Below, in pieces: positions 7,932-59,921 of a stretch of 64,000 nucleotides of DNA. Source of the DNA: a virus. The DNA lies in the IMG/VR virus record IMGVR_UViG_3300028376_000003, positions 32,001 to 96,000 of that record; one strand, written 5' to 3'. The notes beneath the pieces are model-generated. The model was not told where the DNA came from. It did not search any database and saw only the letters and a program-made list of their open reading frames with translations. How positions within the stretch are numbered: position 1 is the stretch's first letter; each line of letters opens with the position of its first letter. The position numbers were made by a program, and so were the translations under genes.

Positions 7932-8663
7932 CTATTCTATTATTTTATATTTTTTTTTAATTTCTTCTAAGTCAGGCATTTCTAAATCGTTATCTCTAAT
8001 GAATGTTTGAAGCCTATCTAACATAACAGTATCTCTATTTCTAACTATTTCATAATCTATAAAATCTTCTATCATAAAGATATCAGCATTTTCAATAAAA
8101 GTATATACTAATAGATTTACTAGATTTGCCCCCATATCTATAGTTCCATTTACTTCTGGGAAATGTTCTAAGTCCTTTAATTCATTACTATAACAATCAA
8201 AATTACCATTTACTGTTTGTGAACCACCCTCTAGTGTTTCTAATTCATTATAGGAACAATCAAAATCACCATCTACTGTTTGTGGACTACCTTCTAATGA
8301 TACTAACTCATTAAAATAACAAATAAAACGCCCACCTACTGTTTGTGGACAACTCTCCAATGACTTTAATCCATTAGAAGAACATTTAAAATCCCCCTCT
8401 ACTGTTTGTGGACTACCTTCTAACGATTTTAATTTATTATCATAACAATAAAAATTACCACTCACATAATTAAATTTAAGTGGTAAGTATTCTAATTTTT
8501 CCTTCTCTAAATATACACTACCATCAACACCAATACTTAAATCATCGTTTATGGTATAATTTTCTATTTCATACTTTTCACACACTTGTATAACTTCCTC
8601 TCTTGTAGTTGGGAAGTTAGGACTTTTATTCTCGAATATTTTATAAGGTTTTATATGTTTCAT
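7932..8663 (-). CDS. LRR-like 21-aa repeat protein, paralog 2
   Basis: As paralog 1, fewer repeats. Confidence 0.85.
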   Translation of the reverse strand: MKHIKPYKIFENKSPNFPTTREEVIQVCEKYEIENYTINDDLSIGVDGSVYLEKEKLEYLPLKFNYVSGNFYCYDNKLKSLEGSPQTVEGDFKCSSNGLKSLESCPQTVGGRFICYFNELVSLEGSPQTVDGDFDCSYNELETLEGGSQTVNGNFDCYSNELKDLEHFPEVNGTIDMGANLVNLLVYTFIENADIFMIEDFIDYEIVRNRDTVMLDRLQTFIRDNDLEMPDLEEIKKKYKIIE

Positions 8664-56485: not shown

Positions 56486-57007
56486 ATGACACGGAATTTT
56501 AAATCAGTTAAAGAAGTACGAGATTTCAAGAAAAAAACTCTTGATATTTATGAGAAAATAGATAATGGAAGAAAATTCACAAACCACTATAAAGAATATG
56601 ATATCTTCAATATGTCTAAGCACTTGGAGATTGGACAACATTTTTTATACGAGAAATATTTATACAAAAGAAGTAAAGGAAATAGTAGTCTTATATGTTA
56701 TCCAGAAATGGGTGTGTTTTTAAATACAATACCAATAGATCAGACCTTTGAGTTGGAATGGTATGATTATAGAAGAACATGGGAATATAATATAAGTGTA
56801 ACAAATGATGATAGTGAGATGTTAATGTATGATTTTCCTAGTGAGATTAGTACTCTTATATTATGGCAAGATAGTTTATTTGTTTATGACGTTTGGGACA
56901 AAAAACCTGACTGGAAACAAATGAGAAAAGCATATGATAAAACTTGGTGGTTCCATAAAACTAAAGAAAAGATAAGACATTTAAAGATAAATTCCATATT
57001 AAGATAA
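56486..57007 (+). CDS. hypothetical protein with C-terminal RHLKINSIL motif
   Basis: TAATATATA at 56460-56468. Confidence 0.65.
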   Translation: MTRNFKSVKEVRDFKKKTLDIYEKIDNGRKFTNHYKEYDIFNMSKHLEIGQHFLYEKYLYKRSKGNSSLICYPEMGVFLNTIPIDQTFELEWYDYRRTWEYNISVTNDDSEMLMYDFPSEISTLILWQDSLFVYDVWDKKPDWKQMRKAYDKTWWFHKTKEKIRHLKINSILR

Positions 57008-57010
57008 TTG

Positions 57011-57343
57011 TTATTTAGGTAATTTCATATCACTTGTTACTTCAATCTTAAATCCAAGTCCTGTGCTTTCATCAGAACCATACTTAGTCTCAGAGTGATA
57101 TCCATTATCAGAATGAAATGTTATTGGTTTAGCACCATGCATCTTTTGCTTATCCTTTTCCTCTTTTTCTTTAAGCATTTCCTCAAATGTTAGATTATCT
57201 GATTTATTTACACTATTATCTCTTATAGTATCTTGTCTATCAGAGTAACCGTACTTTCTTAGTAGTTCCTCTGCCTCTTGTCCAGTTACTTCCCTTTCAC
57301 TTTCAACTCTTTGTCCTTCTATTTGTCTTGTAGTAGCTCTCAT
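57011..57343 (-). CDS. hypothetical protein
   Basis: TAATATATA upstream (57348-57356). Confidence 0.6.
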   Translation of the reverse strand: MRATTRQIEGQRVESEREVTGQEAEELLRKYGYSDRQDTIRDNSVNKSDNLTFEEMLKEKEEKDKQKMHGAKPITFHSDNGYHSETKYGSDESTGLGFKIEVTSDMKLPK

Positions 57344-57453
57344 ATCATATATATTAAAATAATATCTTTGTTAATTATATCTTAAAAATAGTGTGTTAAA
57401 TTAATACATTTCATATATTTGTATAATAAATATCAAAAGAGACAAAACTTTTT

Positions 57454-57462
57454 TAATATATA
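57454..57462 (+). promoter_or_regulatory. TAATATATA promoter box for tRNA operon 1
   Basis: Preceded by AAAACTTTTT; TATATTTG also at 57414. Confidence 0.6.
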
Positions 57463-57478
57463 GTATATAAACATAAAT

Positions 57479-57551
57479 CGCGGGGTAGAGCAGTAGGTAG
57501 CTCGCTAGGCTCATAACCTAGAGGTCGTTGGTTCGAGTCCAACTCCCGCTA
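57479..57551 (+). tRNA. tRNA-Met(CAT), initiator-like
   Basis: CGCGGGG/TCCCGCT acceptor with C1 mismatch, CTAGG-CTCATAA-CCTAG anticodon arm, TTCGAGT T-loop. Confidence 0.92.
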
Positions 57552-57571
57552 CAAATAAATAAATAAATAAA

Positions 57572-57655
57572 ATGAATACTTTTACTAACATAGAATATTA
57601 TTATGAAGAATCTGAACGAAAACGCTCGGCTAGTCTTTTGATGTCTATAATGTAA
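57572..57655 (+). CDS. attenuator leader peptide MNTFTNIEYYYEESERKRSASLLMSIM (Tyr/Glu control codons)
   Basis: 27-codon ORF after A-rich leader; codons 8-15 GAA TAT TAT TAT GAA GAA TCT GAA; followed by terminator and tRNA-Tyr, tRNA-Glu. Confidence 0.8.
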   Translation: MNTFTNIEYYYEESERKRSASLLMSIM

Positions 57656-57672
57656 ATTAAATTATAGTATAA

Positions 57673-57708
57673 AAAAAACCCAGTCTAGTAATATAGACTG
57701 GGTTTTTT
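57673..57708 (+). terminator. attenuator terminator upstream of tRNA-Tyr/Glu
   Basis: AAAAAACCCAGTCTA-gtaata-TAGACTGGG-TTTTTT. Confidence 0.88.
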
Positions 57709-57721
57709 GTTTTAAAAATAT

Positions 57722-57804
57722 GGGGGTAATATGGCACAGGTAGTCATGTCGGTCTGTAAAACCGATTCCGAAAGGTATTGTGGGTTCGAGTCCCACTACG
57801 CCCA
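57722..57804 (+). tRNA. tRNA-Tyr(GTA)
   Basis: TCGGT-CTGTAAA-ACCGA anticodon arm, long variable arm, GTGGG-TTCGAGT-CCCAC; one G:G mismatch in acceptor stem. Confidence 0.88.
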
Positions 57805-57814
57805 CTTAGTACAT

Positions 57815-57887
57815 GCTCCGTTCGTCTAGTGGACTAGGACCCCAGGCTTTCAACTTGGTAACGGGAGTTCAATTCTCCCACGGAGTA
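57815..57887 (+). tRNA. tRNA-Glu(TTC)
   Basis: GCTCCGT/ACGGAGT acceptor, CCAGG-CTTTCAA-CTTGG, GGGAG-TTCAATT-CTCCC. Confidence 0.92.
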
Positions 57888-57969
57888 CTAGTTTTAATAT
57901 TGTTTAAAATAGGATTATAATAATATAATGCTTATATTTGCCTATTATTTAATTTTAAAAAGCTTTTAA

Positions 57970-58134
57970 ATGGAAAAAAACACAATACAAGATTTTAAGT
58001 GTGTATATGTTTATAGAACTGGTAAAAAAATACATGAATGTGTATTTAAAGCCTACAATGTTGAGCAAGCTAAGACACATTTTTCGTTTTTTTATCCGAA
58101 AAGGATATTGAAAGAAATTGAATTACAAAAATAA
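57970..58134 (+). CDS. small hypothetical protein (54 aa, below track cutoff)
   Basis: MEKNTIQDFKCVYVY...; TATATTTG at 57933. Confidence 0.55.
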   Translation: MEKNTIQDFKCVYVYRTGKKIHECVFKAYNVEQAKTHFSFFYPKRILKEIELQK

Positions 58135-58140
58135 ATTATT

Positions 58141-58359
58141 ATGGTTTTAAAAATAGAGATAGAAGGAATTGGCGAATTCGACATAAAACATGATTTGTTA
58201 CATCGAGGTAATCGACCAAGACTGAAAACTTACCATAAAGGGATATTTAGAGAAGTATCTTTTAATAGTTTTGAAGACTATCTAAATCCTACCTATCAGA
58301 GAGGATTTGATTATGAAGGAACAGAAATACAGATTAAAATTTTAGAAAATACAGATTAA
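58141..58359 (+). CDS. small hypothetical protein
   Basis: ORF in operon with preceding small ORF. Confidence 0.6.
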   Translation: MVLKIEIEGIGEFDIKHDLLHRGNRPRLKTYHKGIFREVSFNSFEDYLNPTYQRGFDYEGTEIQIKILENTD

Positions 58360-58381
58360 TTTAAGAGGGAGAGTAAACTTT

Positions 58382-58390
58382 TAATATATA
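58382..58390 (+). promoter_or_regulatory. TAATATATA promoter box for tRNA operon 2
   Basis: AAACTTT-TAATATATA-G, same context as 57454. Confidence 0.6.
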
Positions 58391-58406
58391 GTGTAATATA
58401 ACAATT

Positions 58407-58481
58407 ATGAGAACAATTAATAACATAGCAATAATAGCGATAGGCAAAGGGAAAACTCATTGGCTGGGAATTGTTATGTAA
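58407..58481 (+). CDS. attenuator leader peptide MRTINNIAIIAIGKGKTHWLGIVM (Ile-AUA/Ala/Gly control codons)
   Basis: Codons 7-15 ATA GCA ATA ATA GCG ATA GGC AAA GGG; followed by terminator and tRNA-Ile(TAT), Gly, Gly, Ala. Confidence 0.82.
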   Translation: MRTINNIAIIAIGKGKTHWLGIVM

Positions 58482-58504
58482 TTAATTTAATTATAAATTA
58501 TCAT

Positions 58505-58533
58505 AAACCCAGTCAGAAATGACTGGGTTTTTT
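58505..58533 (+). terminator. attenuator terminator upstream of tRNA-Ile/Gly/Gly/Ala
   Basis: AAACCCAGTCA-GAAA-TGACTGGGTTT-TTT; 5' arm can alternatively pair with TGGCTGGG at 58461-58468. Confidence 0.9.
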
Positions 58534-58547
58534 ATTTTATTATAAAT

Positions 58548-58621
58548 TGGTATGTAGCTTAGATGGTAAAAGCACATGGCTTATATCCATGAGATAGTGG
58601 GTTCGATACCCATCATACCAA
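58548..58621 (+). tRNA. tRNA-Ile(TAT)
   Basis: TGGTATG/CATACCA acceptor, CATGG-CTTATAT-CCATG anticodon arm, GTGGG-TTCGATA-CCCAT. Confidence 0.88.
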
Positions 58622-58629
58622 CAAAATAA

Positions 58630-58703
58630 GCAGGTAACGCATAAGTGATGGTGCACTAGCCTTCCAAGCTAGAATAGAATCGGTTTGATCCCGATTACCT
58701 GCT
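58630..58703 (+). tRNA. tRNA-Gly(TCC), divergent copy
   Basis: GCAGGTA/TACCTGC, CTAGC-CTTCCAA-GCTAG, U73; T-loop TTTGATC is non-canonical. Confidence 0.8.
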
Positions 58704-58714
58704 CGATATAAAAT

Positions 58715-58788
58715 GCAAATGTAGCTCAATTGGCTAGAGTGTCTGATTTCCATTCAGAAAGTTGTAGGTTCGAATCCTATCATTTGCT
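58715..58788 (+). tRNA. tRNA-Gly(TCC)
   Basis: GCAAATG/CATTTGC, TCTGA-TTTCCAT-TCAGA, TTCGAAT, U73. Confidence 0.88.
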
Positions 58789-58795
58789 CATTAAT

Positions 58796-58873
58796 GGGGG
58801 ATTAGCTCAGTCTGGTCGTAAGCGATAGCTTTGCAAGCTGTGTCATACATCGGTTCAAATCCGATATCCTCCA
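58796..58873 (+). tRNA. tRNA-Ala(TGC)
   Basis: GGGGGAT/ATCCTCC with G3:U70, ATAGC-TTTGCAA-GCTGT. Confidence 0.9.
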
Positions 58874-59165
58874 CAGCTTAATTAAAAAAAACAATAATTA
58901 TAGAAGATTTGAGTGCGAGATAGATAGAGAGAGGAGTAATTACTAAATTTGCATCAGATGAATTGGAGAAGTTGTCTAAAAATCATCAGGCTAGAAAATA
59001 TCAAAGCTTCACTATAGATAGGTGAGTTGTTGATATTGTGGACATGTCACCGATTTCTAAGCTAACAAATTCAGTAGATGTGATAGTTTATGGTGGTGAT
59101 TCATTAATGGAGATTTCTTAGAAACATATTAATAATATATATATAGAGAAAATGTACATATTATT

Positions 59166-59921
59166 ATGATTATAAGATTTAGAAGTAGAGGAGAAAAAGT
59201 TAAGGATTTACAAAACTTGTTAGGACTAAAACCTGATGGTATATTTGGTCCTAACACTTTGAAAGCTTTGAAGAATTTTCAAAGAGATAATGGATTAAGC
59301 GTAGATGGTATAGTTGGTCCTAATACTTGGTCTGTTTTAGTAAAAAACGATAAGAATAGAATAAGACCAATTTACGATGTTGATCTAAACGAAGAAGATT
59401 CTGTATCTGATCCAGAGTGTATGTTCTGTGTAGAAGATATTGAGGAAACACAACCTTTGTCCCCTAGTACAAGGGAACTTATAAACCTAATAGAATCTAG
59501 TGATATTACTAGGAATATAAAAAGGCTTGTTTTCCATTGTACTGCAACATCTCAAAAAGCTACTGTATCTGCCATTGTGAATTATTGGAAGAATACACTT
59601 GGGTGGCGTTCACCAGGTTATCATATAATTGTTAGGCCAGATGGAACTTGGAATCAACTACTAGACTTTAACAGAGTCTCTAATGGTGTTCGTGGTATCA
59701 ATTCTACTACTATAAATATATCATATATTGGTGGTGTTGACCGAAATGGTAGAGCATTGGATAATAGAACTAAAAAGCAAAAGGATGTCTATGAAACCAT
59801 TTATAGAGCTTTTAAGCATAAATTACCTAGAATAACATTTCATGGACATAATGAATTTTCATCAAAAGCATGTCCATCTTTTAATGTTAAAAATTGGATA
59901 AAGTCTTTAAGAGTAATTTAA
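59166..59921 (+). CDS. endolysin: PG-binding domain + N-acetylmuramoyl-L-alanine amidase (T7 lysozyme-like)
   Basis: DGIFGPNT..FQ..GLSVDGIVGPNTW; FHCTA, PGYH, HGHNE, KACPSF. Confidence 0.9.
   Translation: MIIRFRSRGEKVKDLQNLLGLKPDGIFGPNTLKALKNFQRDNGLSVDGIVGPNTWSVLVKNDKNRIRPIYDVDLNEEDSVSDPECMFCVEDIEETQPLSPSTRELINLIESSDITRNIKRLVFHCTATSQKATVSAIVNYWKNTLGWRSPGYHIIVRPDGTWNQLLDFNRVSNGVRGINSTTINISYIGGVDRNGRALDNRTKKQKDVYETIYRAFKHKLPRITFHGHNEFSSKACPSFNVKNWIKSLRVI

Follow-up and report, generated by a model that had tools for sequence, protein, structure and literature searches.

Codon-matched leaders and terminators in front of the tRNA clusters of a huge Bacteroidota phage: candidate attenuators of phage tRNA genes

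The DNA considered here is a stretch of 64,000 nucleotides (the window; bases 32001-96000) of the IMG/VR virus record IMGVR_UViG_3300028376_000003, which is 141.5 kb long, has 28.7% G+C, bears the working label G000 and is estimated to be 20% complete. Between window positions 57400 and 58900 lie seven tRNA genes, all on the plus strand, six of them called by ARAGORN and one added by Rfam. Two blocks of these genes are each preceded by a short open reading frame (ORF), here called the leader, and by an intrinsic terminator (Table 1). This unit of leader and terminator, whose possible role in controlling the tRNA genes is our subject, stands before four out of four tRNA clusters of the record, two of which lie beyond the end of the window.

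Table 1. Features of the tRNA region, in window coordinates unless a position is marked as a record position
Feature	Position	Strand	Basis or remark
Bacteroidota-type -7 box (TAnnTTTG), TATATTTG[CT]A match	57414-57423	+	5' of tRNA-Met and unit 1
TTAATATATA motif	57453-57462	+	16 nt 5' of tRNA-Met
tRNA-Met(CAT), initiator-like	57479-57552	+	ARAGORN; Rfam 62.7 bits
Leader ORF 1, 27 codons	57572-57655	+	ORF listing
Intrinsic terminator 1, 15-pair stem (57673-57687 with 57694-57708) and T-run	57673-57712	+	folds
Putatively regulated block 1: tRNA-Tyr(GTA) 57722-57805, tRNA-Glu(TTC) 57815-57888	57722-57888	+	ARAGORN, Rfam
Second TAnnTTTG-type box	57933-57940	+	before two small ORFs preceding unit 2
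Small ORF, 54 amino acids	57970-58134	+	between the tRNA units
Small ORF, 72 amino acids	58141-58359	+	between the tRNA units
TTAATATATA motif	58381-58390	+	16 nt 5' of leader 2 start codon
Leader ORF 2, 24 codons	58407-58481	+	ORF listing
Predicted antiterminator strand (segment 2) in leader 2	58460-58469	+	duplex energy, folds
Intrinsic terminator 2, 11-pair stem (58505-58530), 4-nt loop, T-run	58505-58536	+	folds
Putatively regulated block 2: tRNA-Ile(TAT), tRNA-Gly(TCC) x2, tRNA-Ala(TGC)	58548-58874	+	ARAGORN, Rfam
tRNA-Ile(TAT)	58548-58622	+	ARAGORN
Low-scoring tRNA, Gly(TCC) at lower ARAGORN threshold	58630-58703	+	Rfam 44 bits
tRNA-Gly(TCC)	58715-58789	+	ARAGORN
tRNA-Ala(TGC)	58796-58874	+	ARAGORN
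Endolysin-type protein, 251 amino acids, PG_binding_1 and Amidase_2	59166-59921	+	directly downstream of tRNA block 2
Unit 3: 39-codon leader, codons 3-23 almost all Asn/Leu/Thr/Arg/Val/Ile/Met/Cys	record about 101913-102095		
Unit 4: 34-codon leader, Pro-Gln-Pro-Gln...Asp-x-Asp-Gln-Asp-x-Asp run	record about 106622-106790		

The two leaders of the window are built as the original prediction, made from the sequence alone, had described them: read from the sequence, both begin M-x-T-x-x-N-I and both finish with ATG-TAA. Leader 1 holds three Tyr (TAT) and four Glu (GAA) codons among 26, six of them inside codons 8-15 (57593-57616), and stands before tRNA-Tyr and tRNA-Glu; the control run of leader 2, at codons 7-15 (58425-58451), has four Ile (ATA), two Ala and two Gly codons and stands before genes for tRNA-Ile, tRNA-Gly and tRNA-Ala. 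The proposed match between leader codons and downstream tRNAs is real in both cases, Tyr and Glu accounting for 7 of 26 codons of leader 1 against 3.0 expected (P about 0.03 alone), and Ile, Ala and Gly for 11 of 23 codons of leader 2 against 4.0 expected (P about 0.0007 alone). Five of the six Ile codons of leader 2 are ATA, matching the downstream tRNA-Ile(UAU). Two tRNA-Gly genes had been predicted in this block, and the one missing from the default ARAGORN calls, at 58630-58703, was indeed recovered by Rfam and is called Gly(TCC) by ARAGORN at a lower threshold. Both blocks are also directly preceded, as had been claimed, by terminators with a shared core, stems of 15 and 11 pairs being followed by T-runs. 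The hairpin of terminator 1 (-20.8 kcal/mol) is formed in every fold and ends 10 nt 5' of tRNA-Tyr, terminator 2 ends 12 nt 5' of tRNA-Ile, and the core common to them, AACCCAGTC...GACTGGGTT, has no other copy in the record.

The two further units of the record carry other amino acids. Behind leader 3 lies an array of 11 tRNA genes, namely Leu, Asn, Leu, Leu, Val, Cys, Thr, Leu and Met together with low-scoring genes that, by reading, appear to be Arg(UCU) and possibly Ile; behind leader 4 lie genes for tRNA-Asp, -Gln, -Asp, -Gln and -Pro. Units 3 and 4 are paralogous in their promoter and 5' regions (record about 101818-101935 and 106527-106645), and their leaders share the first seven residues; after residue 7 each has cluster-specific codons, and the terminator stems are unrelated. 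They look like a cassette that was duplicated and then retuned.

A distant BLAST search led to three unannotated genomes of uncultured phages of 634, 636 and 642 kb, taken as Mahaphages, which are the closest complete relatives found; their 45-61 tRNAs were located with Rfam, and the regions upstream of the clusters were then read. For the largest Mahaphage genomes the predicted hosts are Bacteroidetes (Al-Shayeb et al., 2020; PMC7162821). The layout of the unit repeats with other amino-acid sets in four related huge phages, including the three Mahaphage genomes. The leader sets of the relatives are Tyr/Glu, Ile/Gly(/Ala), His/Phe/Trp/Lys, Ser/Arg and Pro/Asp, in addition to a leader of 16-17 codons, seven of them Gln, that precedes three or four tRNA-Gln genes; the units of the most divergent relative are Glu/Ala/Ile/Val/Gly, Tyr/Gln, Arg/Ile/Met and Lys. 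A first scan of viral contigs, for the promoter motif combined with the beginning of leaders 3 and 4, yielded a single relevant contig among hits that were mostly to unrelated genes. Further contigs came from pattern scans of IMG/VR, and they include a Glu/Asn/Asp/Tyr unit and a Tyr/Glu unit to which both a tRNA-Gly and Gly codons have been added. Both window leaders have counterparts: ORFs with the same start and a Tyr/Glu-rich centre precede Tyr/Glu tRNAs in LR745206.1 and LR756502.1, and a Trp-Leu codon pair (TGGCTG) is common to the homologues of leader 2 in these two genomes and in three IMG/VR contigs.

Between homologous units, leader and block change together. Where a Gly tRNA has been added to the Tyr/Glu block, the leader has Gly codons, and where an Asn tRNA has been added to the His/Phe/Trp block, the leader has Asn codons. 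The relatives' singleton tRNA-Met and tRNA-Cys genes are generally without leaders. Inside the relatives' clusters there are mini-leaders of nine codons, three or four of them Lys, before tRNA-Lys (L029:1837-1866; L035, reverse complement, 8177-8206; these handles denote the extracted regions), and leaders with a Gln run and full terminators before tRNA-Gln genes (L031:1939-1989; L042:1338-1391). Both kinds suggest that tRNA blocks are gated at a finer grain than whole clusters.

For the statistics, a unit was defined as an ORF starting with ATG, of 7-60 codons, that ends at most 90 nt from a hairpin with a T-run, the hairpin lying at most 150 nt from a tRNA gene. Each pair of leader and block was scored by a binomial tail under the phage's own amino-acid frequencies, and leaders were permuted among the clusters within a genome. 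In its loose form (stems of 7-8 pairs) this rule adds spurious ORFs before single tRNA-Met or tRNA-Cys genes, which were kept as noise in the test of 38 units. There, the true assignment of leaders to clusters scores 75.3, against 19.7 +/- 6.3 for permuted leaders, and none of 20,000 permutations reaches the observed value; the outcome is the same for the 26 units with stems of at least 9 pairs. Counted genome by genome, the permutations that are at least as good number 1 of 24, 1 of 5040, 1 of 720 and 2 of 720. The original prediction had asked for such co-variation in related huge phages against permuted controls, and it is found both within five genomes and between homologous units. Across 29 leaders, each of the 20 amino acids is 1.5-12.4 times commoner in leaders with a cognate tRNA downstream. 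At the level of codons the signal is weaker: of 94 informative codons, the anticodons downstream can read 61, where 50.1 would be expected (p about 0.015). It is clearest for the Arg codons, which are CGN before tRNA-Arg(ACG) and AGA before tRNA-Arg(UCU) in 10 of 10 cases against 5.0 expected; CGN makes up only 9% of the phage's Arg codons, yet it is used before tRNA-Arg(ACG). Each leader of the window is only modestly significant alone, and the strength of the match comes from its presence at four of four clusters and its repetition in relatives.

The leaders are matched to their terminators as well. Summed over 24 units, the duplexes between leaders and the 5' arms of their own terminators amount to -248.6 kcal/mol, against -170.4 +/- 9.5 kcal/mol with permuted terminators (0 of 20,000 permutations), and in all of these units the pairing strand, segment 2, falls within codons 17-30, towards the 3' end of the ORF. 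Leader 2 can form 8 bp, one of them a G-U pair, between TGGCTGGG and CCCAGTCA of the 5' arm of terminator 2, with -13.6 kcal/mol; the corresponding values are -17.3 kcal/mol for leader 3, -11.2 for leader 4 and -3.8 for leader 1. As a control, 48 terminator-like hairpins of the genome that are unconnected to tRNAs give -6.2 +/- 2.3 kcal/mol, and three of the four units beat 47 or all of these 48. A GGCT(G/A)G tract near the end of both leaders, to which the original prediction had drawn attention, belongs to a good antiterminator in leader 2 only, the equivalent pairing in leader 1 being weak.

Compensatory change can be followed in the Leu/Asn family of leader 3, six homologues of which were aligned; 95% of the cells of this alignment keep the antiterminator paired. 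In the leader 3 of this genome, two adjacent positions have changed on segments 2, 3 and 4 together, leaving antiterminator and terminator both intact, and the compensatory pairs number two in the antiterminator and three in the terminator. The three indels within the ORF are each of 3 nt, and those after the stop codon are not, which argues that the leader frame is under selection. The leader ORFs have also stayed open in divergent relatives.

Cognate codons account for 45% of the codons upstream of segment 2 and for 16% of those from its start on (Fisher 8e-14), with 0-11 nt between the end of the last of them and segment 2. Every unit has 17-36 nt between the leader stop codon and the terminator stem, a distance at which a terminating ribosome would leave the hairpin free. 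Leader 2 takes up the antiterminator as its minimum-energy fold once a ribosome is placed on codon 11, and the nascent RNA of leader 3 folds into its antiterminator as the minimum-energy structure.

TAnnTTTG is the published consensus of the Bacteroidetes -7 promoter element. Besides the two copies of Table 1, boxes of this type occur roughly 90 nt upstream of leaders 3 and 4 and also in front of the leaders of LR745206.1, and we infer that they act as promoters. Transcription from the box at 57933 would run on into leader 2. A TAATATATA promoter at each leader had been part of the original prediction. This stands for leader 2, with its TTAATATATA copy 16 nt upstream, and not for unit 1, whose copy precedes tRNA-Met, leader 1 having no such motif of its own. 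Nor is the motif a specific feature of the units: in the form T[TA]AATATATA it has 47 copies in the 141.5-kb record, mostly 5-35 nt before an ATG (for example at window 3884, 11692 and 20255), and it is a general motif of this phage's genes. As one TTAATATATA copy stands before a tRNA gene, it should be a signal of transcription rather than translation, and it is probably the phage's own promoter element (middle or late?), distinct from the TAnnTTTG box. The short distance of T[TA]AATATATA from the ATG, often only 5-7 nt, suggests near-leaderless mRNAs. Pfam searches of the neighbouring ORFs identified the endolysin only, gave no match for the two small ORFs at 57970-58134 and 58141-58359, and yielded no further clue to the units. 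RtcB and a T4 Rnl1-type RNA ligase were not found in the 20%-complete fragment, an uninformative outcome; the Rnl1 control matched nothing anywhere.

Between well-scoring tRNAs of this record there are weak tRNA-like genes, at window 58630-58703 and at record positions 102264-102359, 102567-102647 and 106960-107033. Default ARAGORN misses all of them; they have Rfam scores of 30-44 bits, except for 102264-102359, which was seen by low-threshold ARAGORN only. Their anticodons, read by eye as Gly UCC, Ile GAU?, Arg UCU and Pro UGG?, match codons of their own cluster's leader. Leader codons may thus help to annotate such genes, the units marking which low-scoring tRNA-like sequences are probably real and what they decode. 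The well-scoring tRNA-Met of the window sits 5' of leader 1, between the promoter motif of unit 1 and the leader, and hence outside the attenuator. Its 1:72 pair (C1/U72), read from the sequence, is non-Watson-Crick, and the gene appears to encode an initiator. A position outside the switch would make sense because a stall in elongation cannot sense the supply of initiator. In the ORFs of the record of at least 150 amino acids, Ile is written as ATA in 64% of cases and Arg as AGA in 70%; given so heavy and unusual a use of ATA and a tRNA-Ile(UAU) of its own, the phage would depend on its own tRNA-Ile.

What can be discerned from all this about the function of the units? We consider it likely that they are ribosome-mediated (leader-peptide) transcription attenuators that control the phage's tRNA genes, with negative feedback. 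Directly visible in the sequence are the ORFs with their codon match, the terminators, antiterminator strands complementary to their own terminators, and the conserved geometry; from the geometry only we infer the direction of the coupling, in which leader translation and a stall would lead to readthrough. Transcription would begin at the host-type box or at the phage's TTAATATATA motif and cross a short ORF packed with cognate codons. With charged cognate tRNA plentiful, the ribosome would cover segment 2 and reach the stop codon, the terminator would form, and the polymerase would halt before the tRNA genes. With cognate tRNA scarce, the ribosome would stall in the control run, leaving segment 2 free to pair with the 5' arm of the terminator; once this antiterminator had formed, the polymerase would read through and the tRNA block would be made. 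As its tRNA products would relieve the stall, each block would be under negative feedback, and leaders with several amino acids would work as OR gates for blocks with several tRNAs. The phage would, in short, probably make a tRNA set only when ribosomes read the matching codons slowly. The logic of trp-, his- and ilv-type attenuation, which the original prediction had invoked, finds its support in the co-variation, the terminators, the antiterminator strands that track these terminators and the placement of the codons. On a broader scale, and with somewhat less assurance, it seems fairly probable that huge Bacteroidota phages possess a tRNA homeostat, with one attenuator tuned to each block (in part to the exact codon) and with host ribosomes signalling the tRNAs in short supply, so that the phage would transcribe just these; this would be the first such system with the sensed tRNA as its output.

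Several observations weigh against attenuation of this kind. The antiterminator of leader 1 has only 5 bp, and its -3.8 kcal/mol falls inside the range of the control hairpins. This remained the best 2:3 pairing after alternative registers had been tried; among the other registers, a 7-bp pairing of the leader 3' end with the 3' arm of the terminator was rejected as kinetically implausible. In the two closest Mahaphages the homologues of leader 1 pair better, with -10.9 and -7.8 kcal/mol, and leader 1 could be a switch that works less well or has degenerated. Between segment 2 and the stop codon the units have -8 to 32 nt, with 10 nt for leader 2 and 23 nt for leader 1, and in several of them, leaders 1 and 3 included, this spacing is 23-32 nt. 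At such a distance a ribosome waiting at the stop would leave segment 2 exposed, so that the classical picture needs a 1:2 hairpin or timing; hairpins of the 1:2 type are present in the minimum-energy folds of leaders 2-4. Folding of both conformers, which had been proposed as a check, succeeded in part: an antiterminator fold was seen only for leader 2, with a masked ribosome footprint, and for leader 3, as nascent RNA, and the full-length minimum-energy folds always retain the terminator, which means that the switch must be kinetic. Some internal mini-leaders of the Lys type are followed by a hairpin without a clear T-run. A leader of IMGVR_UViG_3300037606_000137 (L036:1013-1105) contains two Tyr and three Arg codons, and neither tRNA is called in the block behind it, Glu-Pro-Gln-Asp-Asp; an 82-nt gap after its tRNA-Glu may hold a decayed tRNA. 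Finally, homologous units of related phages are not independent observations, a problem that only the within-genome permutations avoid.

Could the units have arisen by coincidence, with chance ORFs in AT-rich spacers and hairpins that are ordinary terminators or processing signals? AT-rich DNA is rich in short ORFs, the window leaders are singly only modestly enriched (P about 0.03 and 0.0007), and leader 1 is without a convincing antiterminator. However, all four clusters carry the unit, it recurs in five further genomes, no within-genome permutation in 20,000 matches the true assignment, the enrichment extends to all 20 amino acids, and the indels of the ORF are in frame; moreover, a terminator that lies 3' of a promoter-like motif and 5' of tRNA genes cannot be the end of a preceding unit. 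A coincidental codon match is hardly credible in the face of this, and chance is excluded for practical purposes. Scarcely more credible is that the leader peptides are functional micro-proteins whose translation the neighbouring tRNAs merely favour. The N-termini are indeed alike across leaders (M-K/R/N-T/N-x-N-N-I type), yet the remaining peptide sequences diverge freely, with a composition that tracks the tRNA set, and the paralogous leaders 3 and 4, after seven shared residues, differ entirely in step with their clusters. Peptides so short and of such low complexity match no protein family, and a role as micro-proteins would not account for the conserved RNA pairing.

An unlikely, though less far-fetched, alternative is that the coupling is reversed or of another kind, a stall exposing the RNA to Rho or nucleases and so lowering the tRNA, or leader translation controlling the processing or stability of the precursor. 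It would accommodate the units in which a ribosome at the stop leaves segment 2 uncovered and the small antiterminator potential of leader 1. It leaves unexplained, however, why segment 2 is complementary to its own terminator in particular (0 of 20,000) and changes in compensation with it, why the control codons keep their place immediately 5' of segment 2 and why the stops are always found 17-36 nt before the stem; a positive feedback on tRNA shortage would also be without obvious purpose. The attenuators may, on the other hand, work as we propose and respond to a signal other than defence nucleases, namely amino-acid starvation or the stage of infection, as a timer that is on early and off when enough phage tRNA has built up. 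We regard this as a serious possibility, if somewhat short of an even one. A stall registers the supply of charged tRNA irrespective of what has reduced it, the 64% ATA and the tRNA-Ile(UAU) suggest a standing mismatch with host tRNAs rather than an attack, and no tRNA-repair genes were found in the 20%-complete fragment, itself a weak point. This is a variant of attenuation rather than a contradiction of it, and the data do not separate the triggers: the cause of tRNA depletion could be a standing mismatch in codon usage, which the 64% ATA fits, the infection stage, starvation or defence nucleases. Anticodon nucleases (PARIS and similar), a trigger proposed in the original prediction, are neither supported nor contradicted by the findings.

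If phage tRNA blocks are indeed controlled by attenuation, this bears on the regulation of the dozens of tRNA genes in phages, genes that are usually treated as constitutive supplements to codon usage. One codon-matched attenuator per block would mean that the phage gauges decoding capacity in real time and adjusts its tRNA amino acid by amino acid, a closed feedback loop in which a textbook mechanism is aimed at a new class of genes. Such a homeostat would possibly let the phage substitute its own tRNAs for a host pool that is mismatched, degraded or under attack. The units offer a testable handle on the response of phage tRNAs to host tRNA depletion and on the coupling of transcription and translation in Bacteroidota, and they might be of use as compact, programmable "codon sensors" for synthetic biology.

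How do the units compare with known systems? With T-box riboswitches (RF00230) they share that the status of tRNA would decide between terminator and antiterminator upstream of translation-related genes. Unlike the phage units, which use an ORF rich in cognate codons, the T-box recognises uncharged tRNA by direct binding, which involves a specifier codon and the T-box sequence but no translation. Identity with a T-box was rejected because the Rfam scan of 57000-59200 had no match: neither RF00230 nor any other cis-regulatory family reached its threshold there, the scan returning only tRNAs and sub-threshold chance hits. Of the Rfam amino-acid leader families (Thr_leader, His_leader, Leu_leader, Trp_leader), only Thr_leader appeared in the same interval (E up to 1), on the minus strand and with 23.6 bits against a threshold of 55. 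We know of no described translational sensor in front of the tRNA clusters of large phages. As clustered phage tRNAs that supplement host decoding, the blocks resemble those of T4, KVP40 and huge phages (PMC7162821); the main text of Al-Shayeb et al. (2020) counts tRNAs and does not contain the string "attenuat" (PMC7162821). Our literature search found no paper on leader-peptide control of tRNA genes, in phages or elsewhere, which is not proof, as subscription journals were thinly covered.

Classical leader-peptide attenuators of amino-acid biosynthesis operons are known from enterobacteria: trpL, hisL, pheL, leuL, thrL and ilvL/ivbL. To our knowledge, all described leader-peptide attenuators have as their output genes of amino-acid biosynthesis or of aminoacyl-tRNA synthetases. 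In E. coli, the pheST attenuator places phenylalanyl-tRNA synthetase under leader-peptide control, with a single amino acid and in a chromosomal operon. The phage units follow the general logic of leader-peptide attenuation, which has been reviewed (PMC1183508), in that a short ORF with a run of regulatory codons lies between the promoter and the regulated genes, a terminator precedes the first gene, and an upstream strand, with the control codons just 5' of it, can pair with the 5' arm of this terminator. Several amino acids in one leader are likewise known from the multivalent leaders of thr (Thr, Ile) and ilvGMEDA (Ile, Leu, Val). Unlike the enterobacterial systems, the phage units are borne by a virus, cover up to about eight amino acids per leader, and occur several times per genome and, in relatives, even within clusters, and the phylum of their predicted hosts, Bacteroidota, starts translation without reliance on Shine-Dalgarno sequences. 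With pheST they would share the attenuation of a component of translation that serves the sensed codon, the output in the phage being tRNA instead of a synthetase. The central difference from the enterobacterial attenuators lies in this output, which consists of tRNAs and not of enzymes, so that the product would be the very molecule whose shortage is sensed.

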